Shown here piece by piece: positions 3,347 to 58,056 of a stretch of 64,000 bases of DNA (positions are counted from its first letter, which is position 1; the number at the start of each line of letters is the position of its first letter). The notes below the pieces were generated by a model. It was given only the letters and a program-made list of their open reading frames with translations. It was not told the origin of the DNA and searched no databases. This DNA is from Alphaproteobacteria bacterium (lineage in GTDB: Bacteria; Pseudomonadota; Alphaproteobacteria; UBA6615), in the NCBI GenBank assembly GCA_038137215.1, contig JAYQBG010000001.1:40145-104144 (forward strand), given 5' to 3'. Made by a program: the position numbers and the translations under genes.

Positions 3347-4252
3347 ATGAACACCGCACATATCCGATTTGGGTTTAAAATTTCGCTCGCCTGCGACGCG
3401 CAGGTCCCGATGCTGCTGGCATTGTCCCCGCACCCGATGTTTGCCGGAAGCATCATTGGTTCCGAAGAAATCCGGACGGAACCCGAAATTCCACAAGATA
3501 CCTATCTCGATGCTTTCGGGAACCTCTTCACGCGGATCGTGGCACCGGAAGGCGGCCTGGTGCTCTGGTCGGACTGTGTTACCGAAATGGATGGCAGCCC
3601 GGACCCGGTCCTGCCGGACGCACCACTCGCTCCGGTCCCGGAATTGCCATCCGAAACCCTGATGTATCTGGCCCCCAGCCGTTACTGTGAATCAGACCGG
3701 CTGGGCGACTTTGCCTGGGACGCCTTCGGATTCTACACACCCGGCTGGCAGCAGGTGCAGGCGATCTGCGACTACGTCCACGAACAGACCACCTTCGACT
3801 ACAAGTTCGGGCGCCAGACCAAAACGGCCTATGACGTCCATGTCGAGAAGAGCGGGGTTTGCCGGGACTACGCACATCTGGCCATAACGCTGTGCCGGGC
3901 CATGAATATTCCGGCCCGCTATGTCAGTGGCTACATTTCCGACATCGACGCGTCGGAGAGCGGTCCTACCGATTTCTGCGCATGGTTCGAGGTGTTCCTC
4001 GACGGTGCCTGGCACGCATTCGATGCGCGCCACAACACCCCGCGCATAGGCCGCATCGAGCTGGTGCGCGGCCGGGACGCGGCCGATGTCGCGATGATCA
4101 CGTCTTTCGGAACTTACGCGCTCACGCATTTTCGGGTCTGGACCATCGGCCTTCCGGATGGACCGAGCGAGGCCGAGATGCTGGCTTCGCTGGAAATGCG
4201 CCCGGATACGCCGGCGTTGGTCTTCCCGACCTCTGCGCGGATCAACGACTAG
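3347..4252 (+). CDS. transglutaminase-like cysteine-protease family protein
   Basis: 301 aa ORF; core GVCRDYAHLAITLCRAMNIPARYVSGY with catalytic Cys and downstream His/Asp context typical of bacterial transglutaminase-like domains. Confidence 0.8.
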   Translation: MNTAHIRFGFKISLACDAQVPMLLALSPHPMFAGSIIGSEEIRTEPEIPQDTYLDAFGNLFTRIVAPEGGLVLWSDCVTEMDGSPDPVLPDAPLAPVPELPSETLMYLAPSRYCESDRLGDFAWDAFGFYTPGWQQVQAICDYVHEQTTFDYKFGRQTKTAYDVHVEKSGVCRDYAHLAITLCRAMNIPARYVSGYISDIDASESGPTDFCAWFEVFLDGAWHAFDARHNTPRIGRIELVRGRDAADVAMITSFGTYALTHFRVWTIGLPDGPSEAEMLASLEMRPDTPALVFPTSARIND

Positions 4253-4267
4253 GGATCTGCCGCCGCA

Positions 4268-4510
4268 TCACACGCCAACCGCGTTGCGATAGACCTCAAG
4301 CAGGTGCTCCTGCTCCTGGCGCTCATTGGGCTCCAACTTTCGCAGACGAACGATCGCGCGCATGGTCTTGGCATCGAAACCGGCGGATTTTGCTTCGGAA
4401 TAGACCTCACGGATATCCGCGTTCAGATTGGCGCGGTCTTCTTCCAGACGCTCGACCCGTTCGATGAAACTGCGCAGGCGTTCGGCTGCGATTCCGCCGG
4501 TGTCAGACAT
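4268..4510 (-). CDS. DUF2312 / GapR-like small DNA-binding protein
   Basis: 80 aa from ATG at 4510: MSDTGGIAAERLRSFIERVERLEEDRANLNADIREVYSEAKSAGFDAKTMRAIVRLRKLEPNERQEQEHLLEVYRNAVGV, matches the conserved alphaproteobacterial UPF0335/GapR family. Confidence 0.75.
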   Translation of the reverse strand: MSDTGGIAAERLRSFIERVERLEEDRANLNADIREVYSEAKSAGFDAKTMRAIVRLRKLEPNERQEQEHLLEVYRNAVGV

Positions 4511-4611
4511 GAAACTCTCTCCGAAAAACGATGGTCTGCGCATGCATGCGCGATGGAGCAGCGTTTAACCCATACACCTGTGGAAAGGCAAAGCCGGCCT
4601 GGGGATAGCCT

Positions 4612-5094
4612 TCAGTCACCGAGGGTTTTCTCGAACCAGACCTGCGCATAGGGGTTGTCATTGTACCGCGCGATTTCGGCATATCCGGCCCTGCGATAGA
4701 GCTTCTGCGCTTCGACAAGGGTGTTGTTGGAATCCAGCCGAAGCCTGGTGAAACCGCCCTGAACCGCCGCCTCTTCCAGCGCCAGCAGCAGGCGATAGCC
4801 GAGACCCTGACCACGTGCGTCATCGCAGACCCACATGCGTTTGATCTCGGCATACCCTTCACGAAAGGCAACGCCGCCGCACCCAACCGGCAGGTCGCCG
4901 GCACGGGCGAGCAAAAACGCGCCTGTCGGCGGTGCATAGATGCTGTCATCGGGGGCGCCTCCGGCGTCCCGATCGAATCCGTCGGGGAACCGGCGATCGA
5001 TTTCATTGAAATAGCGATCAAGACACCAGATGGAATCCGGATGCGAAAGCGCTTCGGGACCGATCAGGGTCTCCTCGGGAGATGCGGCCACCAT
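4612..5094 (-). CDS. GNAT family N-acetyltransferase
   Basis: Acetyl-CoA binding motif RGQGLGYRLLLALEEAA and surrounding GNAT fold signature; start chosen at internal Met (MVAASPEE) because the longer ORF N-terminus is Arg/Pro-rich junk and would overlap the upstream gene. Confidence 0.7.
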   Translation of the reverse strand: MVAASPEETLIGPEALSHPDSIWCLDRYFNEIDRRFPDGFDRDAGGAPDDSIYAPPTGAFLLARAGDLPVGCGGVAFREGYAEIKRMWVCDDARGQGLGYRLLLALEEAAVQGGFTRLRLDSNNTLVEAQKLYRRAGYAEIARYNDNPYAQVWFEKTLGD

Positions 5095-5113
5095 ACCCGC
5101 ACGCCGTCCGGGG

Positions 5114-5416
5114 TCAGTGGCCCTGCTTCTCCTGCATCTTGGCAAGCTGCTCGGGTGTCGCTTCGGTCTGGTGCTTGGCCTTCCACTCACTGTAGGGCAT
5201 GCCATAGACGATCTCGCGTGCCTCGTCATAGTCGAGGTCGAGGCCCTTTTCCTCTGCTGCGGCCCGGTACCATTTCGACAGGCAGTTCCGGCAAAAATCG
5301 GCGAGGTTCATCAGATCGATGTTCTGCACCTCCGGATGGTCCTGCAGATGCTTCACAAGGGTGCGGAAGGCTGCCGCTTCCAGTTCGGTCTGGGTCGCTT
5401 TGTCGAGTTCGGCCAT
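5114..5416 (-). CDS. DUF1244 family protein
   Basis: 100 aa from ATG at 5416 (MAELDKATQTELEAAAFRTLVKHLQDHPEVQNIDLMNLADFCRNCLSKWYR...); conserved small proteobacterial family. Confidence 0.65.
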   Translation of the reverse strand: MAELDKATQTELEAAAFRTLVKHLQDHPEVQNIDLMNLADFCRNCLSKWYRAAAEEKGLDLDYDEAREIVYGMPYSEWKAKHQTEATPEQLAKMQEKQGH

Positions 5417-5514
5417 GGCATCTCTCTCCTGGGATCGTTTGTTCGCCTCTGCAATATAGGCGCCGGAGGCGGCGGCGCAACGCATCGCGGCCAATTCCGC
5501 GCCACAGAGCTCGG

Positions 5515-6651
5515 TCAGGTCACCCCGACCATTGTCTCCTCGATCAGCCAGTCCACGACAGCCCGGCGCGCCTCGGGCTCATCGGCACCGCCCTGACGGG
5601 CTTTCTGGTGGATATCGAGCTGCTGCTGTCCACTGGTTCCGCGTTCGAGAATCTGACGCGCATGTTCGACATCCGTCACGCAGCCGAGCAAAATGGCGTC
5701 CGGGGATACCAATTCCAGTATTTCTTCGAGCAATTCGTCATAAGCCACGATCTGGCCCTTGCCGAAATCCACAAGCCCCTGGGTCAGACCATACCGTTGG
5801 GCATGCCAGCGATTTTCATTGATGAGAAGATTGGAATAGACCCGCCAGCACTGATTGTCGCGACGCAGGCGCATAATCATGGCAACGAAGCACACATAAA
5901 GCGCGGCGATCGTCAGAGTGTCGTCGAGGGTCGTACAGATATCGGTGATGCGCATCTCCACCGTCGGAAATCGGGCGCTGGGCCGGACATCCCACCAAAT
6001 TTTCGACGCATCCTCGATCAGCCCGGCCTCGATCAGCATATCGATATGACGCTGGTACTCGCCCCAGCTGTCAAAGCGTTCGGGCAGACCGGTGCGCGGC
6101 AATTCGTCGAACACGCTGAGCCGGTAGCTCAGGAGCCCCGTGTCCTGTCCCTGCCAGAACGGCGAGGAGGTGGACAGAGCCAGCAGGTACGGCAGGAAAT
6201 AGCTGACCTGATTCATCACATCGATGCGGTGTTCCTGATCCTCGACCCCCACATGCACATGCATGCCGCAGATCAGCAGGCGGCGGGCTACGGTCTGCAA
6301 GTCCGCCGCCAGCGTGTTGTAGCGCTCCTTGTCCACATGGACCTGATCGTGCCAGTCCGCGCTGGGATGGGTGGATGCCGCGATGATACGATAGCCATGC
6401 ACCTCGGCCACCCCGCCCACAGTTCTTCGCAGCTCGATCAGACGCTGGCGCGCTTCGCTCATATTGGCGCAGACGCTGGTTCCCACCTCGATCTGGGACT
6501 TCAGAAACTCCGGTGAAACCGCCCCCTCCTCTTTCGGAACCGCAGCCTCACATTCCTGCAACAACGCAGCGGGCGGATCACCGGCAAGATCGCGGGTCTC
6601 GGGATCAACGAGAAGATATTCTTCCTCGATCCCGAGCGTGTATCCCTCCAT
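5515..6651 (-). CDS. carboxylate-amine ligase, glutamate-cysteine ligase family 2 (YbdK-like)
   Basis: MEGYTLGIEEEYLLVDPETRDLAG N-terminus and ICGMHVHVGVEDQEHRIDVMNQVSYFLPYLLALSTSSPFW block are diagnostic of GCS2; ATG at 6651 lies 4 nt after the stop of the upstream amidohydrolase gene. Confidence 0.85.
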   Translation of the reverse strand: MEGYTLGIEEEYLLVDPETRDLAGDPPAALLQECEAAVPKEEGAVSPEFLKSQIEVGTSVCANMSEARQRLIELRRTVGGVAEVHGYRIIAASTHPSADWHDQVHVDKERYNTLAADLQTVARRLLICGMHVHVGVEDQEHRIDVMNQVSYFLPYLLALSTSSPFWQGQDTGLLSYRLSVFDELPRTGLPERFDSWGEYQRHIDMLIEAGLIEDASKIWWDVRPSARFPTVEMRITDICTTLDDTLTIAALYVCFVAMIMRLRRDNQCWRVYSNLLINENRWHAQRYGLTQGLVDFGKGQIVAYDELLEEILELVSPDAILLGCVTDVEHARQILERGTSGQQQLDIHQKARQGGADEPEARRAVVDWLIEETMVGVT

Positions 6652-6655
6652 CGTC

Positions 6656-7501
6656 TCAGCCGTCTTTGGGCGTCTCCGAATTTCGGATCCGGTACAGACT
6701 GTCGTCTTCCAGAATGGGCGCGAGCGCATCGAGCAGGCACTGCGTCCAGTCTTCCGCACCGTGATGGGTGTCGATCAGATCCTGCCGGATTTCGATCAAC
6801 GCATTCGCAAAACCTGCGCCATCGCCATGCCGTTCGAGCGTGTAGCCGTATCCCAGACGCGCCGAATAGGGTTCGTTGTCCCCGATCGTCAAATCCGGGT
6901 TTTCGCGCAGCTTCCTGATCAACGCCTCGGGCAGGCGCGGGTCCCGGTTCCATAGAATGCCGAGCTCCCAGGGGCGTTCGACAGCATCCATGATCGGGGT
7001 GAAGCTGTGGATCGACAACAGCACCGGCGCCAGGCCCGGATCACCGGCGGCCTGGAGCCGGTCCAGCTGGCCCTCAATGGCGCGGTGATAGGGATCGAAC
7101 AGGGACCCAATTCGCAGGGCACGCGCGGCCTCATCCAGACCGATATTCGCCGGCACGGGAGTCATATCGCTTTCACCGAGAATCAGGCCCCGGTGATCGA
7201 GCGCTCGGTTGCAGTCGATCACCAGCCGCGAGTAGTTGGTCATGACCGCCGGCGCGTTCAGGGCGTCGGCCATGCGCCGCGTGACATCCGCCGCACCGAT
7301 GTCCCAGCCGATATGGCGGGCCAGTTCGATGTCGCTCAGTCCGAGGCCGTCGAGCGCGCGCGGAACGCGATTGCTGGCGTGATCACACAGCAAGAGGACA
7401 CGCCCCGTGGCCTCCGGGTTCAGGATTTCGACAGGCGGCACTTCGTCTGCGGCCAGGAGGCCGGACGCCGGTGCAGGCGATGATTCGGACCGATTTTCCA
7501 T
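6656..7501 (-). CDS. N-formylglutamate amidohydrolase family protein
   Basis: 281 aa from ATG at 7501; LLLCDHASNRVP and LLSIHSFTP motifs of the FGase (HutG-like) zinc amidohydrolase family. Confidence 0.8.
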   Translation of the reverse strand: MENRSESSPAPASGLLAADEVPPVEILNPEATGRVLLLCDHASNRVPRALDGLGLSDIELARHIGWDIGAADVTRRMADALNAPAVMTNYSRLVIDCNRALDHRGLILGESDMTPVPANIGLDEAARALRIGSLFDPYHRAIEGQLDRLQAAGDPGLAPVLLSIHSFTPIMDAVERPWELGILWNRDPRLPEALIRKLRENPDLTIGDNEPYSARLGYGYTLERHGDGAGFANALIEIRQDLIDTHHGAEDWTQCLLDALAPILEDDSLYRIRNSETPKDG

Positions 7502-7546
7502 CAGTTGATTATAGCCAAAAGGCACCGGCCGCACCCGAGCGGAGAC

Positions 7547-7580
7547 AAAATTTTGGCCGGGCCGTGTGTGCGGCCCGGCC
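7547..7580 (-). terminator. rho-independent terminator downstream of dps
   Basis: Perfect 10-bp inverted repeat ggccgggccg-tgtgtg-cggcccggcc flanked by AAAATTTT, immediately 3' of the dps stop. Confidence 0.6.
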
Positions 7581-7600
7581 AGTGAAACCTATCGGGAAAA

Positions 7601-8095
7601 TTATCCAATCATGCTGCGGAGCATCCAGGCATTCTTCTCGTGCAACTGCATACGCTGGGTCAGCAGATCTGCTGTCGCTTCGTCATTGCCGGCCTCGGCG
7701 GTCGGAAACACTTCACGAGCAGTGCGCACAACGGTTTCCTGCCCTTCGGCCAATTGCCGGATCATATCCTCGGCGATGGGCACATCATCGGCTTCGGGAA
7801 TCGACGACAACTCCGCATAGGCGGCATAACTTCCGGGGGCGGCAAAGCCCAGGGCACGGATTCGTTCGGCAATTTCGTCCACGGCCAGAGCGAGTTCGTT
7901 GTACTGGGTCTCGAACATCAGATGCAGGGTGTTGAACATCGGCCCCGTCACGTTCCAGTGGAAGTTGTGGGTCTTCAGATACAGGGTGTAGGTGTCTGCC
8001 AGCAGCCGCGATAGCCCGTCTGCGATTTCTTGGCGTTGAGCTTCGGGAATGCCGATATTGACCGGCGCACCAATGGACGGGATGGGGGATGCCAT
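7601..8095 (-). CDS. dps: Dps family DNA-protection/ferritin-like protein
   Basis: 164 aa; [52 protein letters not shown] ferroxidase-site signature of Dps. Confidence 0.9.
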
Positions 8096-30891: not shown

Positions 30892-30949
30892 CCAATGCCC
30901 TATCTTATCATGCTCCTTTTTATGGTGCTTGCCGCGACAATGGTCAGCT

Positions 30950-31855
30950 GTGTGCTCTAGGCTTCTTGTTCTCGCCATTCTGGTGCTGACGGCCTGTCAG
31001 CCGGTGCCCCGGCCGTTTGAAGCAGGGCGTGAAACCCCCAACGCGCTTTTGCAGCTCTCGGATACCAGCGGTGTCGCCGTCCTGCCGATCGCTGACGCGC
31101 CGCCCGCCACCGCCCGGAAACTCGCCGAAGAGATGGCGGCATCCCTGATTGCACGCAATGTGCCCGCCTTCGTCACAGGCGGGAACCGGTCAAGCCTGCT
31201 GTTGTCCGGTGAGGTCATCGACCCGGGACGGGACGCGAAGATCGTCTGGACATTGTACGATTCCACCCGAGAAGAACTCGCCCGCCACGACCAGATTATC
31301 GAGGGCACCCCGATCGACCGCTGGGCCGCCGCAGACCCCGAACTCATGGCTCAGCTAGCCGGCGAAGCGGCACCGGCGATCGCCGTGTTCATCCAGGGCG
31401 AAGCCGTTCCCGAGGTTCTCGTGCCGCCCATCTTCGTCGGGGCTGTCAGCGGCGGCAAGGACGTGGATACGATTCGCCTGGAAACCGCATTGCGACAGGC
31501 TTTGCGTCAACAGGGCGCGCGCCTGGCCTCACTCCCCTCGCCCGAAACTTTAGTGGCCAGCGCGACTGTGCAGATCACACCACTGTCCGACGCACGCAGC
31601 GAGGTCGCCATCACCTGGGCGATTCGTGACCCCTATGGCACCGAGATCGGGAAAATCGACCAGGCGAGCCCGTTCCCGCGCGAGGCGCTGGCCACCGAGT
31701 GGGGCAACATTTCCCGCCAGGCCGGGATCGCCGCGGCGGCAGGCATGGTCGAACTGGTCTCGCAGATTGACTGGAGTCAGGGTTTCATTCCGCCGGACCC
31801 GAAAACCCGTCCTGCGCGTCAATCGGATGCCCCCGGTCTTATCCCCAGAGGGTGA
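30950..31855 (+). CDS. hypothetical lipoprotein
   Basis: GTG start giving MCSRLLVLAILVLTAC lipobox signal; no recognisable domain; longer TTG start at 30929 possible. Confidence 0.5.
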   Translation: MCSRLLVLAILVLTACQPVPRPFEAGRETPNALLQLSDTSGVAVLPIADAPPATARKLAEEMAASLIARNVPAFVTGGNRSSLLLSGEVIDPGRDAKIVWTLYDSTREELARHDQIIEGTPIDRWAAADPELMAQLAGEAAPAIAVFIQGEAVPEVLVPPIFVGAVSGGKDVDTIRLETALRQALRQQGARLASLPSPETLVASATVQITPLSDARSEVAITWAIRDPYGTEIGKIDQASPFPREALATEWGNISRQAGIAAAAGMVELVSQIDWSQGFIPPDPKTRPARQSDAPGLIPRG

Positions 31856-36281: not shown

Positions 36282-36833
36282 TTATCCGCAGTCTCCGCTC
36301 AGCAGCAGGCGGCGCAGGTTCTTCGAGACTGCTTCTTCGCCAATCCAGAGCCGCAGGAGCGGGCGGAATACGTCATCGTCCGGCATTTCACGGCGGACCG
36401 CGCCATTCACGATAAGCCGGGCGCCCATTTCCGGTGCATAGACGATACGGACCTCATCACCCGACTCGAAATTCGCATAGATCTCGCGCACGGTCTGTTC
36501 CAGTTCCTCACGGACCATCCGGTCCAGCGGCTATGACCAGCTCTGCGGTATGTTGTCGGGAAGATCCCCGTAAAGAATTTTCAGCTGGACCGCCTTGGGC
36601 GTGCTGGCTGCCAGAATCTCATCCTGACCGAGCCCCGCCCGCGGCAGATAGAGCGCAGCCGCATAGAGGTCGAAAAACAGCGCCTCGCGGGCCCCGCACC
36701 CATGCAATTGCAGCGTCTGCGCCCCCGCCCGGATCTGTTCGGGAAAAGTGACACCCTCGATCTGTGCATAAGCGGCCGGCGTCATGAGGCTGGCAGCCCA
36801 GATAACCAGTCCGAAAATCATCGGCTTGCGCAT
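36282..36833 (-). pseudogene. chalcone-isomerase-like family secreted protein interrupted by in-frame TAG (36531..36533)
   Basis: ORFs 36531..36833 and 36282..36518 are in the same frame and together form one ~183 aa Chalcone_3-type protein (signal peptide, GVTFPEQIRAGAQTLQLHGCGAREALFFDLYAAALYLP ... then ELEQTVREIYANF ... LLRLWIGEEAVSKNLRRLL); sequence reads ...PQSWS-TAG-PLDRMVREE... Confidence 0.65.
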
Positions 36834-36966
36834 TCTTCGATTTCCCTCGTTTCCAGGAAGCAGCCAGCAACAAGCAGCCGGCTCAAACCCGAAACGTCTG
36901 AAAACCGTGGCCGTTCCCCAACGATTTCGCGGCAGTCCCCGCTATCGCGAAGAAAATCCCATAGCG

Positions 36967-37863
36967 CTAATCGTCCATCGCCTCTGCGAACACGAGGAAC
37001 GTGCCGCATGCCTCCTCAGAGGACACGATGACCGCATCCGTGCTGTCCCGCTCGAAGGCCACCTGCTGGCCACTGAGATACATGGCCGTGACCTGCGGGT
37101 CAGCCACCGAAAGTGTCAGTGCTGCCAGACGCGGCAATGCCAGGCCGGGATCAATGGACTTGTCGTAGTGCCGTTCCGGGAAGGTCCTGGGCGTCACGAA
37201 GCACAGAGCATTGCGGCCGGTCTCGACCGTGATGTGACCCCTGCGCTCATCACCCGTGACCGCATCCGCGCCAAACAGGCGGGCATAGGCTTCTGCCACA
37301 CCCTCAAGGTCTTCCATGACGATCGTGACTTCGGCAATGCCGTTCGCGCCATTGGGGTGCGACAACCATCTCGGCCGGCGCACCTCATCCGGGGACAGAT
37401 GTTCACACGCGAAGGTTTTCAGACCCGGGGTCAGGGACTCGGGCAGATAAACGTTGCGAAACTTCAGAATTTCATCGCCATCGCCGGTCTCCAGAAGCCG
37501 CTGAAGGCTCTCCGGCGGCGAGGCATCCACGCCCTGCCCCTGCAACCAGCGAAAGGAGGATTCAGCATCCTCGGTTGCCAGCGCGACATTGAGCAGGCCT
37601 TCGCCCGTTTCCAGAAACGTATCGAGACCGTGGATGTACTGATCGGCATCGATCACACCGAGAAGTTCGACATAGTCGCTCTCGAACATGATCGTGTAGT
37701 TGCCCGTCCCCCAACCGATATGGCGTCCACGCGGAGTCGTCGTGAACCCGAGCCGCTCGAAGCTCTCGCGCGCACGTTCCAGATCCGCCACACCGATCAG
37801 GGCATGGTCGATCCCGGTGATCGGACGATCCGTCACCATTCCGGTGCCATTGGCATCAGACAT
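36967..37863 (-). CDS. VOC (glyoxalase/bleomycin-resistance/dioxygenase) family protein, tandem domains
   Basis: 298 aa with two VOC-like halves (IDHALIGVADLERARESFERLGF; second half around GIAEVTIVMEDLEGVAEAY). Confidence 0.7.
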   Translation of the reverse strand: MSDANGTGMVTDRPITGIDHALIGVADLERARESFERLGFTTTPRGRHIGWGTGNYTIMFESDYVELLGVIDADQYIHGLDTFLETGEGLLNVALATEDAESSFRWLQGQGVDASPPESLQRLLETGDGDEILKFRNVYLPESLTPGLKTFACEHLSPDEVRRPRWLSHPNGANGIAEVTIVMEDLEGVAEAYARLFGADAVTGDERRGHITVETGRNALCFVTPRTFPERHYDKSIDPGLALPRLAALTLSVADPQVTAMYLSGQQVAFERDSTDAVIVSSEEACGTFLVFAEAMDD

Positions 37864-37983
37864 CTTTCAAACTCCCAACGCGTACGATCTGGCTCACAGA
37901 CGCACCATGATCGCTCGACATCCATTGTATTACGTCAATGCCCCAACGGAAAAGGCGCACCAATCCGGAACGTGAGCCCCGAT

Positions 37984-38874
37984 TCAGCCCAGGACCCGGC
38001 CGGCGACCACCTCCAGACGCTGCGCAATCCCCGGATCGCGCGCATCCGGTGCGGTGATCAACGCATTGTCGAGGCTCGTGTGGCAGCCCTGGCCACACAC
38101 CGCATCACGCTCTGAGAGCCGCGGCACAAGGGCACGAATCAGCGCACGGCCCTTGTCGGCATTTTCAAACAGGATTTTGATCACCTGTTCAACGGTAACG
38201 TCGTCATGATCGTCGTGCCAGCAATCGTAATCGGTCACCATGGCCACTGTGGCGTAGCAGAGTTCCGCTTCGCGGGCGAGTTTGGCTTCCGGCATGTTGG
38301 TCATCCCGATCACCGAACAGACCCAGGACCGGTAGAGTTCCGATTCCGCGCGGCTCGAGAATTGCGGGCCTTCCATCACCAGATAGGTCCCGCCACGCAC
38401 AGCGTCGATGCCGACCTCATCCGCCGCCGCGGCAAGGTGGTCACCCAGCCGGCTGCAGACCGGATCGGCCATCGAGACATGTGCAACCAGCCCGGTCTCG
38501 AAGAAGGATTTCACCCGCGCAAAGGTTCGGTCGATGAACTGGTCCACGATCACGAAGGTTCCCGGCGGTAGGTCTTCGCGTAACGATCCCACAGCCGACA
38601 GGGACACAATTTCCGTGACACCCACACGCTTGAGCGCCTCGATATTGGCCCGAAAGTTCAGCTCGGATGGCGGTACCCTGTGGCCGCGCCCGTGGCGAGG
38701 CAGAAACACCACCTGCTGTCCGTCCAGGGTGCCGAACATCAGTTCGTCGGACGGCGCTCCATAGGGCGTATTGACTCCTTCCCAGCGGACATCGCTGAGG
38801 CCCTCGATATCGTAGATACCGCTGCCCCCGATAATGCCCAGCACGGGCGGGACGGATGCGTGGTTCGCCGCCAT
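37984..38874 (-). CDS. mtnP: S-methyl-5'-thioadenosine phosphorylase
   Basis: LGIIGGSGIYDI ... FLPRHGRGHRVPPSELNFRANIEALKRVGV, PNP/MTAP family. Confidence 0.85.
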   Translation of the reverse strand: MAANHASVPPVLGIIGGSGIYDIEGLSDVRWEGVNTPYGAPSDELMFGTLDGQQVVFLPRHGRGHRVPPSELNFRANIEALKRVGVTEIVSLSAVGSLREDLPPGTFVIVDQFIDRTFARVKSFFETGLVAHVSMADPVCSRLGDHLAAAADEVGIDAVRGGTYLVMEGPQFSSRAESELYRSWVCSVIGMTNMPEAKLAREAELCYATVAMVTDYDCWHDDHDDVTVEQVIKILFENADKGRALIRALVPRLSERDAVCGQGCHTSLDNALITAPDARDPGIAQRLEVVAGRVLG

Positions 38875-48039: not shown

Positions 48040-49059
48040 ATGCCTTCAGATGATCTTACCCGCACGGACCACGAAAACAGCGCCACGGAACGACTCTTCG
48101 AGGACATCGAACGGGTCAGCGAACAACTCGTAGCCGTCCGCAGCGGAATTTCGCGCGTCATCTTCGGTCAGGAAGATGTCATCGACCAGACATTGATTAC
48201 GCTCCTCTCGGGCGGCCATCTCCTTCTGCTCGGTGTTCCGGGCCTTGCCAAGACACGCCTGGTTGAAACGCTGGGCACGGTTCTCGGGCTCGATAGCCGG
48301 CGCGTCCAGTGCACACCGGATCTGATGCCGGCCGATATCGTCGGCTCGGAAATTCTCGACGAAACTGACGAGGGCCGTGCCTTCCGCTTCATTCCCGGCC
48401 CGGTGTTCACGCAGGTCCTGATGGCGGACGAGATCAACCGGGCAAGCCCGCGCACCCAGTCGGCACTGCTGCAGGCGATGCAGGAACGCGAAGTCTCCGT
48501 GGCAGGCCAGACCCATACCCTGCCCCGGCCCTTCCATGTTCTGGCCACCCAGAACCCAATCGAACAGGAGGGCACCTACCCGCTGCCCGAAGCACAGCTC
48601 GACCGATTTCTGCTTCAGGTCAATGTGGACTATCCCGACCCCGAAGCCGAACGGCAGATGCTGCTGGTCACGACCGGGCTGGAAGACCCGCAAGCCAAGC
48701 AGGTGATGGATGCTGCGCAACTGATCCAGGCACAGCAACTCGTGCGGCGGCTCCCGGTCGGTGAAAGCGTTGTGGAGGCCATTCTTGCTCTGGTGCGGTC
48801 CGGCCGCCCCGGCGTCTCCGATCGCGAAGAGGTCAACAACTGGGTGGCCTGGGGTCCCGGTCCACGCGCCAGTCAGTCCCTGATGCTCGCCACACGCGCC
48901 CGCGCCCTGCTGCAGGGCCGCGTCTCGCCTTCGGTCGATGACGTGGTCGCGCTCGCGCCGGCCATCCTGCGCCACCGGATGGCCCTGAACTTTGCCGCCC
49001 GGGCCGAAGGCCGCACCCTCGAGCAGATGATCGATCACCTTTGCGATCCGTTCCGCTAG
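48040..49059 (+). CDS. MoxR-family AAA+ ATPase
   Basis: Walker A LLLLGVPGLAKTRL, Walker B/sensor blocks, typical 339 aa length. Confidence 0.9.
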   Translation: MPSDDLTRTDHENSATERLFEDIERVSEQLVAVRSGISRVIFGQEDVIDQTLITLLSGGHLLLLGVPGLAKTRLVETLGTVLGLDSRRVQCTPDLMPADIVGSEILDETDEGRAFRFIPGPVFTQVLMADEINRASPRTQSALLQAMQEREVSVAGQTHTLPRPFHVLATQNPIEQEGTYPLPEAQLDRFLLQVNVDYPDPEAERQMLLVTTGLEDPQAKQVMDAAQLIQAQQLVRRLPVGESVVEAILALVRSGRPGVSDREEVNNWVAWGPGPRASQSLMLATRARALLQGRVSPSVDDVVALAPAILRHRMALNFAARAEGRTLEQMIDHLCDPFR

Positions 49060-49083
49060 ACCGCTCCCGGACGCACCGCCACC

Positions 49084-50001
49084 ATGACCCTGCAGCCCGA
49101 CACCGTCGCGGACAACGATCCGCAGACACGCCGGCGCAGTGAAGAACTCGCTGCGAGCTTCCCGCCCCTGCTGGTCGCCGCCGAGCGCGTGGCTTCAACG
49201 GTGGCCCAGGGCGTCCATGGGCGCCGCCGGGTCGGCCAGGGTGAAACCTTCTGGCAATACCGCCGGTTCGAGTTCGGCGACAGTCCGCAACAGATCGACT
49301 GGCGGCGCTCGGCCCGCTCCGACCGGCTCTATGTCCGTCAGACCGAATGGGAAGCGGCGCAGAGTATCTGGCTGTGGCCGGACCTCTCCGCCTCCATGCG
49401 CTACACTTCATCACGCTCATTGCCGGAAAAGCAGGAACGCGCGGCGGTCCTCGCACTTGCCCTGACATCGCTCCTGATCCGCGGCGGAGAACGCATTGCC
49501 CTGCTCGACAAGCCCGAGCCACCCGCCACCGGCCGCGCCGTGCTCGACCAGGTTGCCATGAGCGTGCTGCGGGACATGTCCCTCGATCCCGCAGAACAGG
49601 ATCTGCCCGTCGTACCACCGCTTCCGCGCTACAGTACGGTTGTCCTGATCAGTGATTTTCTCGTGGATCCGGCCAACCTCATCCCGTTCCTGGAACAGAT
49701 TGCCGCGCGCGGTGTGCGCGGGCATCTGGTGCAGGTGCTCGATCCGAGCGAGGTCGATTTGCCGTTTCGCGGGCGTACGCGGTTTCGCGGGCTGGAGTCC
49801 GAGGGAGAGTTGCTGGTCGGACGGGCCGAATCCCTGCGTGAAGCATATCAGAGCCGGCTGGCGGAACTGCAGTCGGGTTTGCGCACCTTTGCCCAGCGGG
49901 CCAGCTGGACCTACACGACCCACCTCACCGACGCACCACCTGAGCCGGCGATGCTCAGCCTCTTCACCAATATGACCGAGGCGCTCCATGCCCGGACGTG
50001 A
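49084..50001 (+). CDS. DUF58 domain protein (MoxR partner, VWA-like)
   Basis: GETFWQYRRFEFGDSPQQIDWRRSAR block characteristic of DUF58. Confidence 0.85.
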   Translation: MTLQPDTVADNDPQTRRRSEELAASFPPLLVAAERVASTVAQGVHGRRRVGQGETFWQYRRFEFGDSPQQIDWRRSARSDRLYVRQTEWEAAQSIWLWPDLSASMRYTSSRSLPEKQERAAVLALALTSLLIRGGERIALLDKPEPPATGRAVLDQVAMSVLRDMSLDPAEQDLPVVPPLPRYSTVVLISDFLVDPANLIPFLEQIAARGVRGHLVQVLDPSEVDLPFRGRTRFRGLESEGELLVGRAESLREAYQSRLAELQSGLRTFAQRASWTYTTHLTDAPPEPAMLSLFTNMTEALHART

Positions 50002-50007
50002 CCGCCC

Positions 50008-52767
50008 ATGCTGACCTTCGGCGCCTTGTCCTTTGCCGTGCCCTGGCTGCTGGCCGCACTGGTCATATTGCCGGTGTTGTGGTGGCTGCTGCGGGCCGTC
50101 CCGCCCGCGCCGTCGCGTGTCGCATTTCCGGCCATCCGTCTTTTGTTCGGACTGCCACAGCATGAGGAAACCCCGCATCGGACGCCGTGGTGGCTGCTGG
50201 CGCTTCGATTGATTCTGGCAGCTCTGGTGATCCTAGCGCTCGCACACCCGGTGCTCGACCCCGGGCGGGTGTTGCGCGGCAGCGGGCCGCTGATTCTGGT
50301 CATAGACAATGACTGGAGTGCGGGCGCGGACTGGGATTTGCGGCGCGAGACCGCTCTGGGTCTCATTGACGAGGCAGATCGGGAAAACCGGACGGTCTAT
50401 ATTGCGACCTCCGCGCGCTCGGAACTGGCCAGACGTCCGGCACTCCAGCCGCTGGCCGCAGCCGCGGCACGCGACCGCATCCGAAACCTGGCCCCGGCGC
50501 CCTGGGAAAGCGACCACGACGCGGTACTGAGCCAGATCGAATCGCTCGACCTGGAGGGCTCTGCCAACGCTGTCTGGTTGTCCAGCGGCCTGGCGGAACG
50601 TGCCGGGGACCCGGACACCGGAAGCTCGGGAAGAAGTCCCTCGAATCTTCTGGAATCCGCACTGCAAAGGCTCGGCTCTCTGCGGATCATTCAACCCGCG
50701 CCGGTCGATATGCCATTCGTGCTTGCGGGAAGCGAGAACGCAACCGACGGCCTGCGCATTCAGGTCAGCCGCTCACATGGCGAGGCCCCGCGCGAGCTGG
50801 CGTTGATCGCGAGCGACGAGGCCGGTCGCCTTCTGGCCCGCGAGACCGCCCGTTTTGCCGCCGATGCGGAGTCCATCGAGGTCACCATTCCGCTGCCCAG
50901 TGAGTTGCGCAACCGGATCACATGGGTTTCGGTCGAAGGACTTGGCACGGCCGGCAGCACCTTGCTGTTCGATGAGTCCTCTCGCCGCCGGCCGGTCGGT
51001 CTGGTGTCGGGCGACATCGCACAAGTCGACCAGCCCCTGCTCGGCAACGCCTTCTATCTAAGCCGGGCTCTCGAGCCCTTCGCCGAATTGCGCACGGGCA
51101 CCATCACCGAGTTGCTCGAACGCCGGCTGGCCGTGCTCATGCTTTCGGATATCGGCAATCTGACGGGAACCGAGATCGAAGCCCTTGATGACTGGATCGG
51201 CAGAGGTGGCGTGCTCGTCCGCTTTGCCGGCCCGAACCTTGCCGAAGGCAGCGATGCTCTGCTGCCGGTGGGCCTGCGCCGCGGCGGACGCGTTTTCGGC
51301 GGGGTGATGAGTTGGGAACAGCCGGCCACGCTGAACCCGTTCGAAGAATCATCACCCTTCGCCGGCCTGACCACATCGGACGAGATCGTTGTTTTCCGAC
51401 AGGTGCTCGCCCAGCCATCCCCGGAACTGGCCAGCAAGACATGGGCACGCCTGAATGACGGGACACCGCTTGTCACCGGAGAGAAGCTCGGCGATGGCTG
51501 GCTCGTTCTGTTTCACACCACCGCGAACGCAGAATGGTCATCGCTGGCGCTATCGGGCACCTATGTCGAAATGCTCCGCCGCCTGATCGCGCTCAGCCAG
51601 GGCGTGGGAACGGATACGACCGCCCGGCCCCTGCCGCCCCTGGCCAGCCTCGATGGATTTGGTCGCCTGACCGACCCCTCGGCGCAGGCCCGCCCACTGC
51701 CCGCCGGGGATATCTCCGAGGTTCAACCCGGCCCCGGCGCGCCGCCGGGTTTTTACGGGAACCGGCAAATACGCCAAGCCTTCAATCTGGGGCCAACTCT
51801 CGACCCGGTCGCGTTTGAAAGCCGTGCAAATGGCGTTGAAACCCGAACCTATGGTCCCACGCAGCAGACCGATCTGCGAGTCTGGTTGCTGGTATCGGCC
51901 TTCGTGCTTCTACTGCTTGACCTGCTGATTTCACTGGGCCTGCGCGGCCATTTGCCCGGCCGCCGCGCCGCCCCTGCGGCAACCGCCCTGGCGTTTCTGA
52001 TTGCGATCGGCGCCACCCTGTCCCCCTCACCGGGACAAGCGCAATCCAGTGATGTCTTCGCCCTGCAATCAACGGAGAAAACCCATCTCGCCTATGTCCT
52101 GACCGGCGACACGCGGATCGATGAGACCAGCCGCGCCGGGCTGTTCGGGCTCGGACAAAGTCTCTCGCGCCGGACTTCGGTTGAACCCGGTGCGCCGGTC
52201 GGACTGGACATTGAGCGCGACGAGCTCGCCTTCTTTCCGCTGATCTACTGGCCGATGACGGACAACCAGTCGCCACTCTCGGATGATGCCAAAGCCCGGA
52301 TCAACCTCTTCCTGCGCAACGGCGGCACCATTGTCTTCGATACCCGCGACCAGAGCCTGTCGGGGGTCGGTGGTGTGGGACCCGGCACCCGGACCCTGCG
52401 CGGCCTGGTGGAGGGCCTGGATATGCCGGCGCTGATCGAGGTGCCCGGGGATCATGTTCTCACCAAGGCTTTCTACCTGATGCGGGATTTTCCGGGCCGC
52501 TGGCAGGGCGGACGGGTCTGGGTGCAGCAGCCCGACAAGCGGGTCAATGATGGGGTTTCGTCCGTGATCATCGGGTCGAACGACTATGCCGCCGCCTGGG
52601 CCATAGACGTCAATGGCCGACCGATGTTTCCGATGGCCACCGGCAGTGCACGGCAGCGCGAACTGGCCTTCCGTTTCGGGGTCAATCTGGTGATGTACGC
52701 CCTGACCGGCAACTACAAGGCCGATCAGGTTCATCTCGATGAAATCCTCGAACGGCTCGGGCAATAG
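50008..52767 (+). CDS. large membrane protein with N-terminal double-TM BatA-like domain and C-terminal DUF4159-like region
   Basis: 919 aa; N-terminus two TM helices LLAALVILPVLWWLL / WWLLALRLILAALVILALA; conserved partner of MoxR/DUF58 operons. Confidence 0.7.
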   Translation: MLTFGALSFAVPWLLAALVILPVLWWLLRAVPPAPSRVAFPAIRLLFGLPQHEETPHRTPWWLLALRLILAALVILALAHPVLDPGRVLRGSGPLILVIDNDWSAGADWDLRRETALGLIDEADRENRTVYIATSARSELARRPALQPLAAAAARDRIRNLAPAPWESDHDAVLSQIESLDLEGSANAVWLSSGLAERAGDPDTGSSGRSPSNLLESALQRLGSLRIIQPAPVDMPFVLAGSENATDGLRIQVSRSHGEAPRELALIASDEAGRLLARETARFAADAESIEVTIPLPSELRNRITWVSVEGLGTAGSTLLFDESSRRRPVGLVSGDIAQVDQPLLGNAFYLSRALEPFAELRTGTITELLERRLAVLMLSDIGNLTGTEIEALDDWIGRGGVLVRFAGPNLAEGSDALLPVGLRRGGRVFGGVMSWEQPATLNPFEESSPFAGLTTSDEIVVFRQVLAQPSPELASKTWARLNDGTPLVTGEKLGDGWLVLFHTTANAEWSSLALSGTYVEMLRRLIALSQGVGTDTTARPLPPLASLDGFGRLTDPSAQARPLPAGDISEVQPGPGAPPGFYGNRQIRQAFNLGPTLDPVAFESRANGVETRTYGPTQQTDLRVWLLVSAFVLLLLDLLISLGLRGHLPGRRAAPAATALAFLIAIGATLSPSPGQAQSSDVFALQSTEKTHLAYVLTGDTRIDETSRAGLFGLGQSLSRRTSVEPGAPVGLDIERDELAFFPLIYWPMTDNQSPLSDDAKARINLFLRNGGTIVFDTRDQSLSGVGGVGPGTRTLRGLVEGLDMPALIEVPGDHVLTKAFYLMRDFPGRWQGGRVWVQQPDKRVNDGVSSVIIGSNDYAAAWAIDVNGRPMFPMATGSARQRELAFRFGVNLVMYALTGNYKADQVHLDEILERLGQ

Positions 52768-52775
52768 GACAGGCG

Positions 52776-54911
52776 ATGGGCAATTTTCTTATCGTCTGGG
52801 ACCCGCTCCTCCCCTTCCTCGCGCTGGCCGGAATGGCTGCGACCGGCGTGCTGGTTCTGGCCGTCGGGATGCTGGCACCGCGTCCGGGCCGTCCGGCCCC
52901 GGGCCTGGCCTGGCGCGGACTAACCATCGCGGCAATTCTGACCGCGCTGGCCAATCCGTCCCTGATCCTCGAGGACCGCGAAGCACTGACCGATATCGGC
53001 GTGGTCGTGGTCGATCGCTCGCCGAGTCAGTCGATCCGGGATCGCACCGCCCAGACCGACAGCGCCCTTGCCGAGATCCGCGCCTGGGCTGCCGGTCAGG
53101 ACAACCTGGAACTGCGTTTCGTCGAGTCGCCATCCGCCGGCACGGATCCTGACGCACGTTCGACAAGTTTTCGCGACGGCACACATCTCTTTACCGCACT
53201 CGAACGGGAACTGACGGACATCCCACGCGACCGGTTCGCGGGCGCGCTCCTGATTACCGACGGACGCATCCACGATGTTCCTGACGACATCGCAAGTCTC
53301 GAGCTGACGGCCCCCATTCACACGCTGATGACCGGCGCGCGCGAGGAGGGCGACCGGCGCCTGACCATTGTGCAAAGTCCGGGATTCGGGATCGTGGGCG
53401 ACAAAGTCCGCCTGACCCTGCGCATCGACGAACCCCGCGCCACCCAGGCGCGCCAGGCTCAGGTCACCATACGGCGCGACGGCGAAGTTCGTGGCCGGAC
53501 CGTTCTTGTTCCGGTGGGCGTTGACCACAGCATCGATATCGTCGTCGACCGTGGCGGGCCGAGCGTCTTCGAACTGGCGGTCAATGAAGGGGCACAGGAA
53601 CTCACCCTGACCAACAATCGGGCCGTGGTCACCATCAACGGGATCCGTGACCGGCTGAGTGTTCTGCTGGTGTCCGGAGCACCCCATCCCGGCGAACGCA
53701 CTTGGCGGAACCTTCTGAAGGCGGACCCGTCGGTCGACCTCGTGCACTTCACCATCCTTCGCCCCCCGGATAAGCAGGACGGCACACCGGTACGTGAACT
53801 CAGCCTGATTGCGTTCCCCTACCGCGAATTGTTCGAGGTCAAGCTGAACGACTTCGACCTGATCATATTCGACCGTTATCAGCGGATGGGTATCCTGCCC
53901 TCGGTGTATCTGCGGAATATTGCGAATTACGTTGAATCCGGCGGCGCGTTGCTGGAGGCGGCCGGACCCGAAGTCACCCCGATCACCAGCCTCTACCGCA
54001 CAGCGCTCGCAGCCGTTTTGCCGGGCGAACCGACCGGTGAAGTCATTCTGGAACCCTTCACCGCCGAGGTGAACGAGACCGGGCGCCGTCACCCCGTTAC
54101 GGCACACCTGACCGGCCTGCCTGACGACGTCGATGCGGCACCCGAATGGGGCCGCTGGTTCCGGCAGATCGAGGCACGCTCCAAATCCGGTACGGTTGTC
54201 ATGAACGGGCCGAACGAGCAGCCGCTCCTGATACTCGACCGGGTCGGCGAAGGCCGGGTTGGCCAGTTTCTGAGCGATCATATCTGGCTCTGGGCACGCG
54301 GCTTTGAAGGGGGTGGACCGCATAACGAGCTGCTGCGGCGCCTTTCACATTGGCTGATGAAGGAACCCGAGCTCGAGGAAGATCGTCTGACGGCCTTCGT
54401 GCGCGGCGACACAATCGACATCACCCGACGCAGCCTTTCGCCCGACCTGGCGCCGGTCTTCGTAACCGGCCCCACGGGAGAAGAGACCCAGCTTGTGCTG
54501 GACGAACAGGGCGACGGACGGGCCACGGGGCAAATCGCGATCACCGAACCCGGTATTTACCGGTTCGATGACGGTACGCGCACGACCGTGGCCGGAGTCG
54601 GCACGATCAACCCGATCGAGTTTTCCGATGTCACGGCGAGCGACCGCCTCTTGCGGCCTGTCTCGGCCGCGACCGGCGGCGGGGTGAGCTGGTTGTCCGA
54701 AACCGGCACGCCGGATTTGCGCATCAACCGGCCCGGGCGCGCCCTGACCGACACAGCGAGCGATGGCAGTTCTGCACGCTGGGTGGCGTTTCAACGCAAC
54801 GATGCTTCCGCCATTCGCGGTTTGCGCGAAGTCCCCGTTCTTCCGGCTCTTCTTCTGCTTATGGTCATTGGTGCATTCCTGGTCGGGGCCTGGCGCCGGG
54901 AAAGCCGCTAG
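52776..54911 (+). CDS. membrane-anchored hypothetical protein, fourth gene of the MoxR/DUF58 operon
   Basis: 711 aa; N-terminal and C-terminal TM segments; start 9 nt after preceding stop. Confidence 0.6.
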   Translation: MGNFLIVWDPLLPFLALAGMAATGVLVLAVGMLAPRPGRPAPGLAWRGLTIAAILTALANPSLILEDREALTDIGVVVVDRSPSQSIRDRTAQTDSALAEIRAWAAGQDNLELRFVESPSAGTDPDARSTSFRDGTHLFTALERELTDIPRDRFAGALLITDGRIHDVPDDIASLELTAPIHTLMTGAREEGDRRLTIVQSPGFGIVGDKVRLTLRIDEPRATQARQAQVTIRRDGEVRGRTVLVPVGVDHSIDIVVDRGGPSVFELAVNEGAQELTLTNNRAVVTINGIRDRLSVLLVSGAPHPGERTWRNLLKADPSVDLVHFTILRPPDKQDGTPVRELSLIAFPYRELFEVKLNDFDLIIFDRYQRMGILPSVYLRNIANYVESGGALLEAAGPEVTPITSLYRTALAAVLPGEPTGEVILEPFTAEVNETGRRHPVTAHLTGLPDDVDAAPEWGRWFRQIEARSKSGTVVMNGPNEQPLLILDRVGEGRVGQFLSDHIWLWARGFEGGGPHNELLRRLSHWLMKEPELEEDRLTAFVRGDTIDITRRSLSPDLAPVFVTGPTGEETQLVLDEQGDGRATGQIAITEPGIYRFDDGTRTTVAGVGTINPIEFSDVTASDRLLRPVSAATGGGVSWLSETGTPDLRINRPGRALTDTASDGSSARWVAFQRNDASAIRGLREVPVLPALLLLMVIGAFLVGAWRRESR

Positions 54912-56734: not shown

Positions 56735-57298
56735 TTAAAACGAAGAGTTTGGTTCCTCCAGAAACGCGCGCTCCTCTTCGCTGCTCTCGCGCCCCAGAAT
56801 TTCGTTGCGATGGGGGAAACGCCCGAACCGGGCAATGATGTCGCGGTGTCGCACGGCGTAGTCTAGATTTGTCTCGTCTCCCTCGGCACCGGCCTCGACC
56901 AGCTTCCCGAACACCTCCACACACAGCTCCTGATCTTTCAGATCCTCGCTGTGCATGAGCGGCATATAGAGGAATTTGCGCGCGTTCAGTTCGAGCTGTT
57001 CGTCAAATTGTTTGTCGAGAGCCAGCCGTGTCAGCGCCAGCGCATGGGCATCTGCCGACCATGCCAGGGGCGAATCCCGATGAATGTTGCGCGAGAACTG
57101 ATCGATCAGGATGATCAGCGCAAGACACCCGCGCGGCGTTTCCAACCAGGTCACCAGCTTCCCGTCCCGCGCGGCATGGGTCAGCGCACCGAACCGGTCC
57201 GCAATATCCGCATCAAAATCGTCGCTCTTTTCAAACCATTTGTCAGGACCGGCTTCCTCGAACCAGAACGTCAGCACATCATCCGGTGTCATCGTCAT
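56735..57298 (-). CDS. DUF924 family protein
   Basis: 187 aa conserved family (WFEKSDDFDADIADRFG ... FSRNIHRDSPLAW). Confidence 0.75.
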   Translation of the reverse strand: MTMTPDDVLTFWFEEAGPDKWFEKSDDFDADIADRFGALTHAARDGKLVTWLETPRGCLALIILIDQFSRNIHRDSPLAWSADAHALALTRLALDKQFDEQLELNARKFLYMPLMHSEDLKDQELCVEVFGKLVEAGAEGDETNLDYAVRHRDIIARFGRFPHRNEILGRESSEEERAFLEEPNSSF

Positions 57299-57378
57299 CG
57301 TGGTTCTCTCCGCTGGACTGTTCTGTTCCCGAGCCCCAATTGATATACACGCTGTTCCATTTCGCCACCTGAATTCGC

Positions 57379-58056
57379 ATGACCAACAAACTCAGCCGGG
57401 ATTCCATTCGCGACGGCAATGTCTATCGTATGCTCAAGGAACAGGAGCATCTGACCAATATTCGCCCGCTGACCGATGCGGAACGCGAATCGACGCTCGA
57501 CGCATTTCTCGAAACGGTCCCCAAAGGTCCGCTCTGGGTTTTCGGCTATGGATCGCTGATCTGGAATCCGGCCTTTCACCACACCGGACGGCGTAACGCG
57601 CGGGTGTTCGGTTTCCATCGCTACTTTTGCATCAAGACACCTCTGGGCCGGGGCAGTCCGGACTACCCAGGCCTTATACTCGCCCTGGATGTGGGCGGCT
57701 CGTGCCATGGTGTCGCTTTCCGCCTGCCCGCCAGGTCGATGCGTGAGGAACTGTCCGTGGTCTGGGCACGTGAAATGGCGATCGAAGGAACCTATCGGCC
57801 TGTCTGTGTCCGCGCGCGAACATCCAGGGGCCCCATTCACGCCGTCACCTTTGCCATCAATCATGCCAGCGAACGCTATGTCGGCCGCCTCCCCGAAGAC
57901 GAACTCGTCGAACGACTGGCAAGGGCGTCGGGGTATCTGGGAAGCTGCGCGGAATATCTGCACAACACGGTAACTCATATGCGCGAGAGCGGCATTCGAG
58001 ACGCGCACATGTTTCGCCTGCACCGCCTCGTCGAAGAGGCGACATCGCAGAAATAG
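57379..58056 (+). CDS. ChaC-like gamma-glutamylcyclotransferase
   Basis: PLWVFGYGSLIWNP ... GGSCHGVAFRL motifs of ChaC/GGCT. Confidence 0.8.
   Translation: MTNKLSRDSIRDGNVYRMLKEQEHLTNIRPLTDAERESTLDAFLETVPKGPLWVFGYGSLIWNPAFHHTGRRNARVFGFHRYFCIKTPLGRGSPDYPGLILALDVGGSCHGVAFRLPARSMREELSVVWAREMAIEGTYRPVCVRARTSRGPIHAVTFAINHASERYVGRLPEDELVERLARASGYLGSCAEYLHNTVTHMRESGIRDAHMFRLHRLVEEATSQK

Follow-up and report, generated by a model that had tools for sequence, protein, structure and literature searches.

A Conserved Gene Pair Encoding an FGase-Like Amidohydrolase and a GCS2 Ligase in an Alphaproteobacterial Genome: A Candidate Two-Enzyme Module for Amino Acid Amides

The FGase-GCS2 Locus

A 64,000-nt stretch of the genome of Alphaproteobacteria bacterium (UBA6615) (GCA_038137215.1, contig JAYQBG010000001.1, positions 40,145-104,144), here called the window, carries a pair of adjoining genes for an FGase-like metallo-amidohydrolase and a GCS2-type carboxylate-amine ligase. 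The pair is part of a six-gene region (window 3347-7534), in which open reading frame (ORF) calls and Pfam and NCBIfam profile assignments recovered the same genes and families as an initial annotation of this DNA. The first gene of the pair (6656..7501, minus strand) encodes an FGase-like protein of 281 aa from the Atu2144 subfamily (PF05013, E = 8.5e-44). Its start is ATG 7501, not GTG 7534, as judged from N-terminal alignment with homologues. The second gene (5515..6651, minus strand) encodes a GCS2/YbdK-family carboxylate-amine ligase of 378 aa (PF04107, 1.7e-59; NF010039).

The stop codon of the FGase gene and the start codon of the GCS2 gene are 4 nt apart (...GGC TGA gacg ATG GAG...), a spacing already claimed in the initial annotation and seen directly in the sequence (junction 6649..6658, minus strand; TGA at 6658-6656, ATG at 6651-6649). 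Spacings in 51 related pairs include -4 (14 loci), -1 (8), 0 (4), -8 (2), and 2-7 nt (9). Stop and start codons overlap or abut in 28 of the 51 pairs and lie no more than 71 nt apart in 50 of them; these figures are approximate, since start codons were picked by a simple rule.

A dps gene (7601-8095) is located directly upstream of the pair. It ends in a hairpin terminator (7554..7581, minus strand) with an 11-bp stem containing 10 G-C pairs, followed by AAATTTTGT. Within about 40 nt after this terminator, and 6 nt before the FGase ATG, the sequence reads TATAAT (7513-7508, minus strand), a possible -10 box for which a consensus scan found no matching -35 element. Because the dps terminator and the TATAAT hexamer both lie before the FGase ATG, the FGase-GCS2 pair starts its own transcription unit, and the terminator forms the 5' boundary of that unit. 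The position of the hexamer suggests that the mRNA is possibly leaderless or near-leaderless. The EcfG-type general-stress promoter motif (GGAAC-N15-18-CGTT) does not occur near the operon, and the whole window has two matches against 2.4 expected by chance.

Conservation and Co-inheritance of the Pair

Two samples of related loci were compared. For the GCS2-anchored sample, one genome per species was scanned, which gave 80 loci at 57-80% identity; 81 distinct GCS2-anchored loci were searched by tblastn with the window proteins. An FGase-like gene lies upstream of GCS2 on the same strand in 53 of the 81 loci and immediately adjoins it in 52. One metagenome-assembled genome (MAG) of Rhodospirillales has a 3-kb insertion between the two genes (L039:4944-7974). 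By record title, the pair occurs in the alphaproteobacterial groups Rhodospirillales, Kiloniellales, Dongiaceae, Azospirillum, and Devosiaceae. Outside Alphaproteobacteria, it occurs in Woeseiaceae and other Gammaproteobacteria, Terriglobia/Bryobacterales (Acidobacteriota), Gemmatimonadaceae (Gemmatimonadota), and a MAG labelled Latescibacterota. Although the taxonomy assigned to a MAG is sometimes mistaken, there are several independent cross-phylum cases, and the pairing is thus conserved across several phyla, beyond the lineage of the window.

The FGase-anchored sample consisted of 80 metagenome loci at 41-55% identity. Eight of these are on contigs that end too soon, leaving 72 informative loci: GCS2 is directly downstream in 31, DUF1244 is directly downstream without GCS2 in 11, a glutamine-synthetase-family gene is nearby in 2, and the context is different in 28. 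The family itself is large, with 619 clusters (50% identity) matched by the FGase-like query at E <= 1e-30. Because gene order and strand recur in 52/81 genome loci and 31/72 metagenome loci, the adjacency of FGase-like and GCS2 genes is far beyond chance.

The two genes also share a history. Pairwise-distance matrices of the FGase-like and GCS2 proteins are correlated across 76 pairs (r = 0.73; permutation maximum 0.13, n = 500), and pairs from outside Alphaproteobacteria have identical nearest neighbours in the FGase-like and GCS2 trees. Therefore, both genes have been inherited, and apparently transferred, together. The description of the couple as recurrent and tightly coupled is borne out by these counts, the short spacings, and the matrix correlation.

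Other genes are less constant at pair loci. Recurrent extras are DUF1244/GapR, pyruvate kinase, and an EamA-like permease (16 mostly related alphaproteobacterial loci). When flanking ORFs were clustered all against all, no conserved third gene emerged outside Alphaproteobacteria, and no transporter, dehydrogenase, or regulator is conserved beside the GCS2-type pair in the 81 genome loci. Among 23 solitary FGase-like genes, the only recurrent neighbour family is an enolase-superfamily (MR_MLE) protein, present in four.

The FGase-Like Amidohydrolase

The FGase-like protein has a PF05013 domain with the FGase fold, and family-invariant polar residues are present. It belongs with the solved protein Atu2144 (PDB 2ODF), which the family profile matches at 1.7e-59 compared to 3.4e-05 for the HutG-type structure 2q7s. 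After the FGase family itself, the fold is nearest to poly-gamma-glutamate hydrolases. Identity with HutG was considered and rejected: the protein scores 29.2 bits against TIGR02017, for which the cut-off is 278.75. Among Pfam-annotated genes in the 64-kb window and the flanks of two related loci (L001/L002), there are no hut genes (hutU, hutH, hutI, hutF). The finding that could have overturned the initial annotation, a genuine hutG in a histidine-utilisation context, was thus not made in the window. The database annotation of the FGase-like protein, N-formylglutamate amidohydrolase, is probably wrong.

Paralogues of the FGase-like protein at 40-48% identity adjoin glutamine-synthetase-family ligases; as a clade they are sister to the FGase-like proteins that are paired with GCS2. 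Sister-clade clusters also hold TRAP or ABC transporters, an aldehyde dehydrogenase, an aminotransferase, or an isochorismatase-type hydrolase. In Ruegeria, the cluster has a TRAP transporter, a glutamine-synthetase-type ligase, and an aldehyde dehydrogenase, and it resembles the gamma-glutamylation ethanolamine pathway. PF05013 proteins are the proposed gamma-glutamylglycine amidohydrolase of that pathway (PMC9397018, Table 2; PMC6529630).

Two further arrangements in this family were observed. A cluster of an isochorismatase-family hydrolase, a glutamine-synthetase-family protein, and an FGase-like protein recurs in five loci (L084, L085, L089, L098, L166), which are plasmids of Brucella anthropi, Skermanella, Roseomonas, and Shinella and one metagenome contig. 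The four annotated plasmid loci also carry a MurR/RpiR regulator and/or an ABC transporter, and by its gene content the cluster looks like a gamma-glutamylation catabolic pathway. Separately, one 393-aa protein (P0387) has a response-regulator receiver domain fused N-terminally to an FGase-like domain, which suggests that some members of the family may be under phosphorylation control.

The GCS2 Ligase

The GCS2 protein matches PF04107 over profile positions 1-291 of 291 (202 bits, cut-off 21). It scores 521.7 bits against the "carboxylate-amine ligase" model NF010039 (cut-off 371) and 206 bits against the YbdK model NF010040, and the YbdK structures 1r8g/1tt4 match it at E of about 1e-40 and about 30% identity. 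Family-invariant residues are present. The GhExE ATP/Mg motif, as described for this family (PMC2588565), corresponds to G7-I8-E9-E10-E11, in which G7, E9, E10, and E11 are invariant in 14 homologues. Canonical GshA was rejected as an assignment, with 14 bits against TIGR01436 (cut-off 463) and 65 bits against TIGR02048 (cut-off 249).

To our knowledge, cysteine is the only substrate with precedent for a GCS2-type ligase. The ligases of this family that have been characterised couple an amino acid to the gamma-carboxylate of glutamate (PMC2588565).

GCS2 genes that lack an FGase-like neighbour have contexts of their own. In Hyphomicrobiales-type loci (L019, L022, L025, L028, L032, L044, L057, L072, and others), a VIT1-like transporter gene lies directly upstream on the same strand, with a short-chain dehydrogenase, glutathione reductase, and ribose-5-phosphate isomerase downstream. 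On Paracoccus plasmids, the FGase-less GCS2 is near Cu/Zn superoxide dismutase (L086, L087) or serine acetyltransferase (L083). The dps gene found directly upstream of the pair in the window is in the same place in L006, L007, and L018. These gene contexts hint at thiol or oxidative-stress metabolism.

Neighbouring Genes and the Remainder of the Window

DUF1244 is encoded downstream of the pair by a 100-aa gene (5114..5416, minus strand; PF06844, 2.5e-40) with a CxxC motif (FCRNCL). The GapR-like gene (4268..4510, minus strand) encodes a nucleoid-associated protein of 80 aa (PF10073, 1.8e-32, 111 bits). Its score against NF010247 is 109 bits (cut-off 94), and against the Caulobacter GapR equivalog NF052541 it is 82 bits (cut-off 140). 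Between them is a gene for a 160-aa GNAT acetyltransferase (4612..5094, minus strand; PF00583, 7.6e-14). Before start choice, the full ORFs span 4268-4543 for GapR-like, 4612-5229 for GNAT, and 5114-5494 for DUF1244; shorter starts are likely.

In the 81 loci, DUF1244 lies downstream of GCS2 in 23 and a GapR gene is present in 27, and both follow the pair exclusively in Alphaproteobacteria. Only the window's nearest relatives (L001, L003-L005) have a GNAT homologue, making it a lineage-specific insertion outside the conserved unit. DUF1244 and GapR belong to a block of alphaproteobacterial synteny, which is also seen with GCS2 missing: in a Shinella replicon (L097) and a Tistrella plasmid, the FGase-like gene is followed directly by DUF1244 and then GapR. 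GCS2 is not found elsewhere on the Shinella replicon among the 60 listed of 75 plasmid-collection matches. With the 11 metagenome loci, these make 13 FGase-DUF1244 loci without GCS2. In a neighbour-joining tree of 145 FGase-like proteins, the DUF1244-only cases are scattered among GCS2-paired ones, which suggests that the ligase gene was lost or relocated repeatedly.

DUF1244 may be an accessory partner of the pair in Alphaproteobacteria. A 385-aa protein (P0366, L100:179-1336) on one 2.9-kb metagenome contig has an FGase domain (residues 30-234) fused to DUF1244 (313-379); coming from a single contig, it could be a real fusion or a frameshift artefact, and it is only a hint. Solved structures of DUF1244 are available from structural genomics (PDB 3fyb/2o35), and the family has no conserved C-terminal Glu/Gln. 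The distance between GCS2 and DUF1244 is only about 96 nt in the window and is larger by 0.5-0.65 kb in the closest relatives (L001, L004-L007). In one of these, the gap holds a called 141-aa ORF without a Pfam match (L001:11238-11663).

The sixth gene of the region (3347..4252, plus strand) encodes a Transglut_core protein of the "TGase-B" subfamily (PF01841, 1.9e-20; 73.6 bits, cut-off 23). The initial annotation placed it divergently across a shared intergenic region. However, the gene ends at 4252 (TAG, plus strand) and the GapR-like gene ends at 4268 (TGA, minus strand), so the two are tail to tail with 15 nt between their stops and no shared promoter region. The protein was also called a transglutaminase-like cysteine protease. 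Its PF01841 domain supports the first part of that name, but protease is an overcall: the Cys (GVCRDYA) and Asp (AFDA) of the Cys-His-Asp triad are kept, and the canonical His (HAW in canonical paralogues) is replaced by Cys, with C, S, A, or N at this position in 10 close homologues.

A tblastn search found the transglutaminase-like gene in none of the 81 loci within +/-8 kb. Four plasmid homologues are solitary or lie beside a transglutaminase paralogue, and some plasmid homologues are near ferritin-like, Hsp20, hemerythrin, or YsnF genes. The gene was rejected as a partner of the pair on its absence from these loci, its convergent orientation, and its mostly solitary plasmid homologues. The suggestion that it fits a protein- or peptide-modification theme should be dropped, and the tagging theme itself is without support. 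GNAT, GapR, and the transglutaminase-like gene are neighbours and not components of the module.

In six unrelated loci (L088, L150, L165, L176, L177, L180), a canonical transglutaminase gene and a gene of the window's subfamily form an operon divergently upstream of an FGase-like gene. The FGase-like proteins of these loci belong to a different clade from the GCS2-paired ones, including that of the window. From these gene orders, there may be a family-level link between transglutaminase and FGase-like genes, which does not involve the window's FGase or its arrangement.

The window is ordinary core chromosome, with uvrB, uvrC, moeA, proC, lgt, prs, pth, ychF, cytochrome bc1 genes, and others. 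Searches of the 64 kb for Rfam families and tRNAs found a single tRNA-Gln at about 58.1 kb and no other RNA element. No PADLOC anti-phage defence model was matched by any of the six proteins. Further along the plus strand (48040-54911) are genes for a MoxR-type AAA ATPase, DUF58, a BatA/DUF4159 protein, and a 711-aa ORF without a Pfam match; judged by its domains, the set resembles a Bat-like operon of the aerotolerance type, one large member of which is unannotated. Long predicted ORFs without a Pfam family at E <= 0.001 are located at 30929-31855 (plus), 36784-38115 (plus), and 57295-58023 (minus).

Interpretation of the Pair

Our preferred reading, to which we give a probability of roughly 45%, is that the FGase-like protein and GCS2 are a two-enzyme ligase/hydrolase module for a gamma-glutamyl or N-acyl amino acid amide. 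This reading is preferred because the chemistry of the ligase family and the precedent of the sister-clade clusters and PF05013 proteins converge: by analogy, both families would act on amides of the type acyl/gamma-glutamyl-NH-CH(COOH)-R. On this reading, the two genes form one enzyme module, coupled in translation and passed on together. GCS2, with a glutamine-synthetase fold, would be the ATP-dependent carboxylate-amine ligase. The FGase-like protein, which has a carboxypeptidase fold, would be a metallo-amidohydrolase of a family that cleaves N-acyl or gamma-glutamyl amides of amino acids, and most likely it would hydrolyse the same gamma-glutamyl-X amide that the ligase makes, or a closely related one. 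Like other synthetase/amidase couples, the pair may set the level of a gamma-glutamyl compound or recycle it. We infer that glutamate is the carboxylate substrate, and likewise the identity of the amine and the sharing of one molecule by both enzymes. The initial annotation had proposed the making and trimming of a gamma-glutamyl-type amide or peptide tag; the amide is consistent with the sister clade, the PF05013 precedent, and the fold, but the tag is unsupported.

Several points weigh against this reading. GCS2 orthologues at 57-65% identity lack an FGase-like gene in 28 of the 81 loci, and the 13 FGase-DUF1244 loci without an adjacent GCS2 belong to the same clade and are scattered through the tree. 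Because such loci exist, neither enzyme has a strict need for the other as a gene neighbour. A fusion of FGase with GCS2 was not found among the 150 best cluster representatives, in which the long matches are FGase+DUF1244, receiver-domain+FGase, FGase+AlgH-like, or unannotated extensions. A ligase and a hydrolase expressed 1:1 for one amide would run a futile ATP cycle unless regulated. As a gamma-glutamylcysteine ligase, E. coli YbdK reportedly performs very poorly. The biochemical roles of both proteins are predictions from sequence, and the substrate class is drawn from family analogy. Full-text literature searches found no paper on the FGase-like/GCS2 pair, on the function of Atu2144, or on DUF1244, which agrees with the earlier statement that the couple is functionally uncharacterised.

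Other explanations of the pair were weighed. It could supply the first and last steps of a gamma-glutamylation catabolic or detoxification route of the Puu, ethanolamine, or isopropylamine type, in which the ligase tags an amine, unlinked oxidoreductases modify it, and the FGase-like protein frees glutamate from the final gamma-glutamyl amino acid. The sister clade sits in just such clusters (ligase, aldehyde dehydrogenase, aminotransferase, TRAP/ABC transporters), and PF05013 has been given this role (PMC9397018; PMC6529630). However, across the 81 loci no transporter, dehydrogenase, or regulator is conserved beside the pair, and its setting is core chromosomal housekeeping; this route appears unlikely, though plausible. 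In sequential salvage, the FGase-like protein would deacylate an N-acyl or gamma-glutamyl compound and the freed amino acid would feed the ligase, leading to gamma-glutamylcysteine-type thiol metabolism. Placement of the hydrolase gene first and the ligase gene second in a translationally coupled pair fits this reading, as do the thiol and stress genes near FGase-less GCS2 (glutathione reductase, VIT1-like transporter, Cu/Zn superoxide dismutase, serine acetyltransferase) and dps directly upstream in the window and three other loci. Salvage is nevertheless improbable: these neighbours each occur in a single lineage, where synteny alone may account for them, a strong terminator separates dps from the pair, and the operon has no general-stress-response promoter motif nearby. 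A related speculation, by analogy, is that in Alphaproteobacteria the pair and the CxxC protein DUF1244 would together run an as yet unrecognised, regulated cycle that makes and breaks a gamma-glutamyl dipeptide or low-molecular-weight thiol, buffering cysteine or thiols under oxidative or iron stress. We regard this as quite unlikely, if less so than salvage.

Protein or peptide modification, with the ligase adding a tag, the amidohydrolase trimming it, and the transglutaminase-like protein taking part, is highly improbable. GCS2-related ligases can tag proteins, as PafA/Dop shows (PMC2588565), a transglutaminase pair including the window's subfamily lies divergently upstream of the other FGase-like clade in six loci, and there is the one FGase+DUF1244 fusion. 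Yet the window's FGase is outside that clade, and the transglutaminase-like gene is convergent here, missing from all 81 pair loci, and altered at the canonical His. No conserved small tag-like ORF was found, and DUF1244, the small protein limited to Alphaproteobacteria, does not have a conserved C-terminal Glu/Gln. Least probable of all is that the FGase-like gene is an ordinary hutG, or that the two genes adjoin through conserved gene order and have no link in function. The database label favours hutG, and much of the neighbourhood (pyruvate kinase to GapR, indolepyruvate oxidoreductase) is plain alphaproteobacterial synteny. This explanation is at odds with the TIGR02017 score (29 bits vs 279), the structural matches (2q7s 3.4e-05 vs Atu2144 1.7e-59), and the lack of hut genes in the window or flanks; moreover, in other phyla the two genes recur by themselves, their stop and start codons overlap, and their trees are congruent.

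A ligase/hydrolase module for an amino acid amide, as preferred here, would matter for annotation and physiology. Both genes are widespread; of their annotations, "carboxylate-amine ligase" is empty and "N-formylglutamate amidohydrolase" is probably wrong. Conservation and co-inheritance of a ligase with a hydrolase limit where to look for the physiological substrate of YbdK-type ligases. Should the product be a gamma-glutamyl metabolite or thiol that is new, the small-molecule stress protectants of Alphaproteobacteria and of several phyla from soil and sea would gain a member; if there is no new metabolite, an annotation spread across many genomes is still corrected.

Comparison with Known Systems

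E. coli YbdK (1R8G, 1TT4) shares full-length PF04107, the GhExE motif, and about 30% identity with the window GCS2. However, the two fall into separate NCBIfam groups (NF010040 vs NF010039), and YbdK has no FGase-like partner gene. HutG (TIGR02017, 2Q7S) has about 22% structural-alignment identity with the FGase-like protein, which has no histidine-utilisation genes near it. Atu2144 of Agrobacterium tumefaciens (2ODF), a protein solved by structural genomics, belongs to the same subfamily; in Shinella, another member of the Rhizobiaceae, the corresponding gene (L097) leads straight into DUF1244 and GapR without an intervening GCS2.

Glutathionylspermidine synthetase/amidase (Gss) is an ATP-dependent amide ligase coupled 1:1 to a hydrolase of the same bond. 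Its folds are unrelated to those of the window pair, but the logic is alike, and the make-and-break thiol cycle considered above would be analogous to it. PafA/Dop follows the same scheme, an amide ligase matched 1:1 by a hydrolase of the bond that it makes (PMC2588565; PMC7947786). Both PafA and Dop have the ligase fold and act on a protein tag, whereas the window pair shows no evidence for a protein substrate.

PuuA/PuuD, GlnA4 with SCO1615, and the ethanolamine cluster of C. salexigens each combine a glutamine-synthetase-superfamily ligase with an amidohydrolase, as in the window pair. In ethanolamine-type clusters, the hydrolase is a PF05013 protein 40-48% identical to the window FGase-like protein (PMC9397018; PMC6529630). 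The pair shares with gamma-glutamylation clusters the adjacency of ligase and amidohydrolase, but not the linked dehydrogenases/oxidases and transporter: no dehydrogenase/oxidase, transporter, or regulator is conserved beside it, and it lies on a housekeeping chromosome rather than in a catabolic island. Its ligase is of the GCS2 type and not the glutamine-synthetase PF00120 type. The pair is a ligase/amidohydrolase couple of this general kind, set apart by its GCS2-type ligase and by the lack of accessory catabolic genes.

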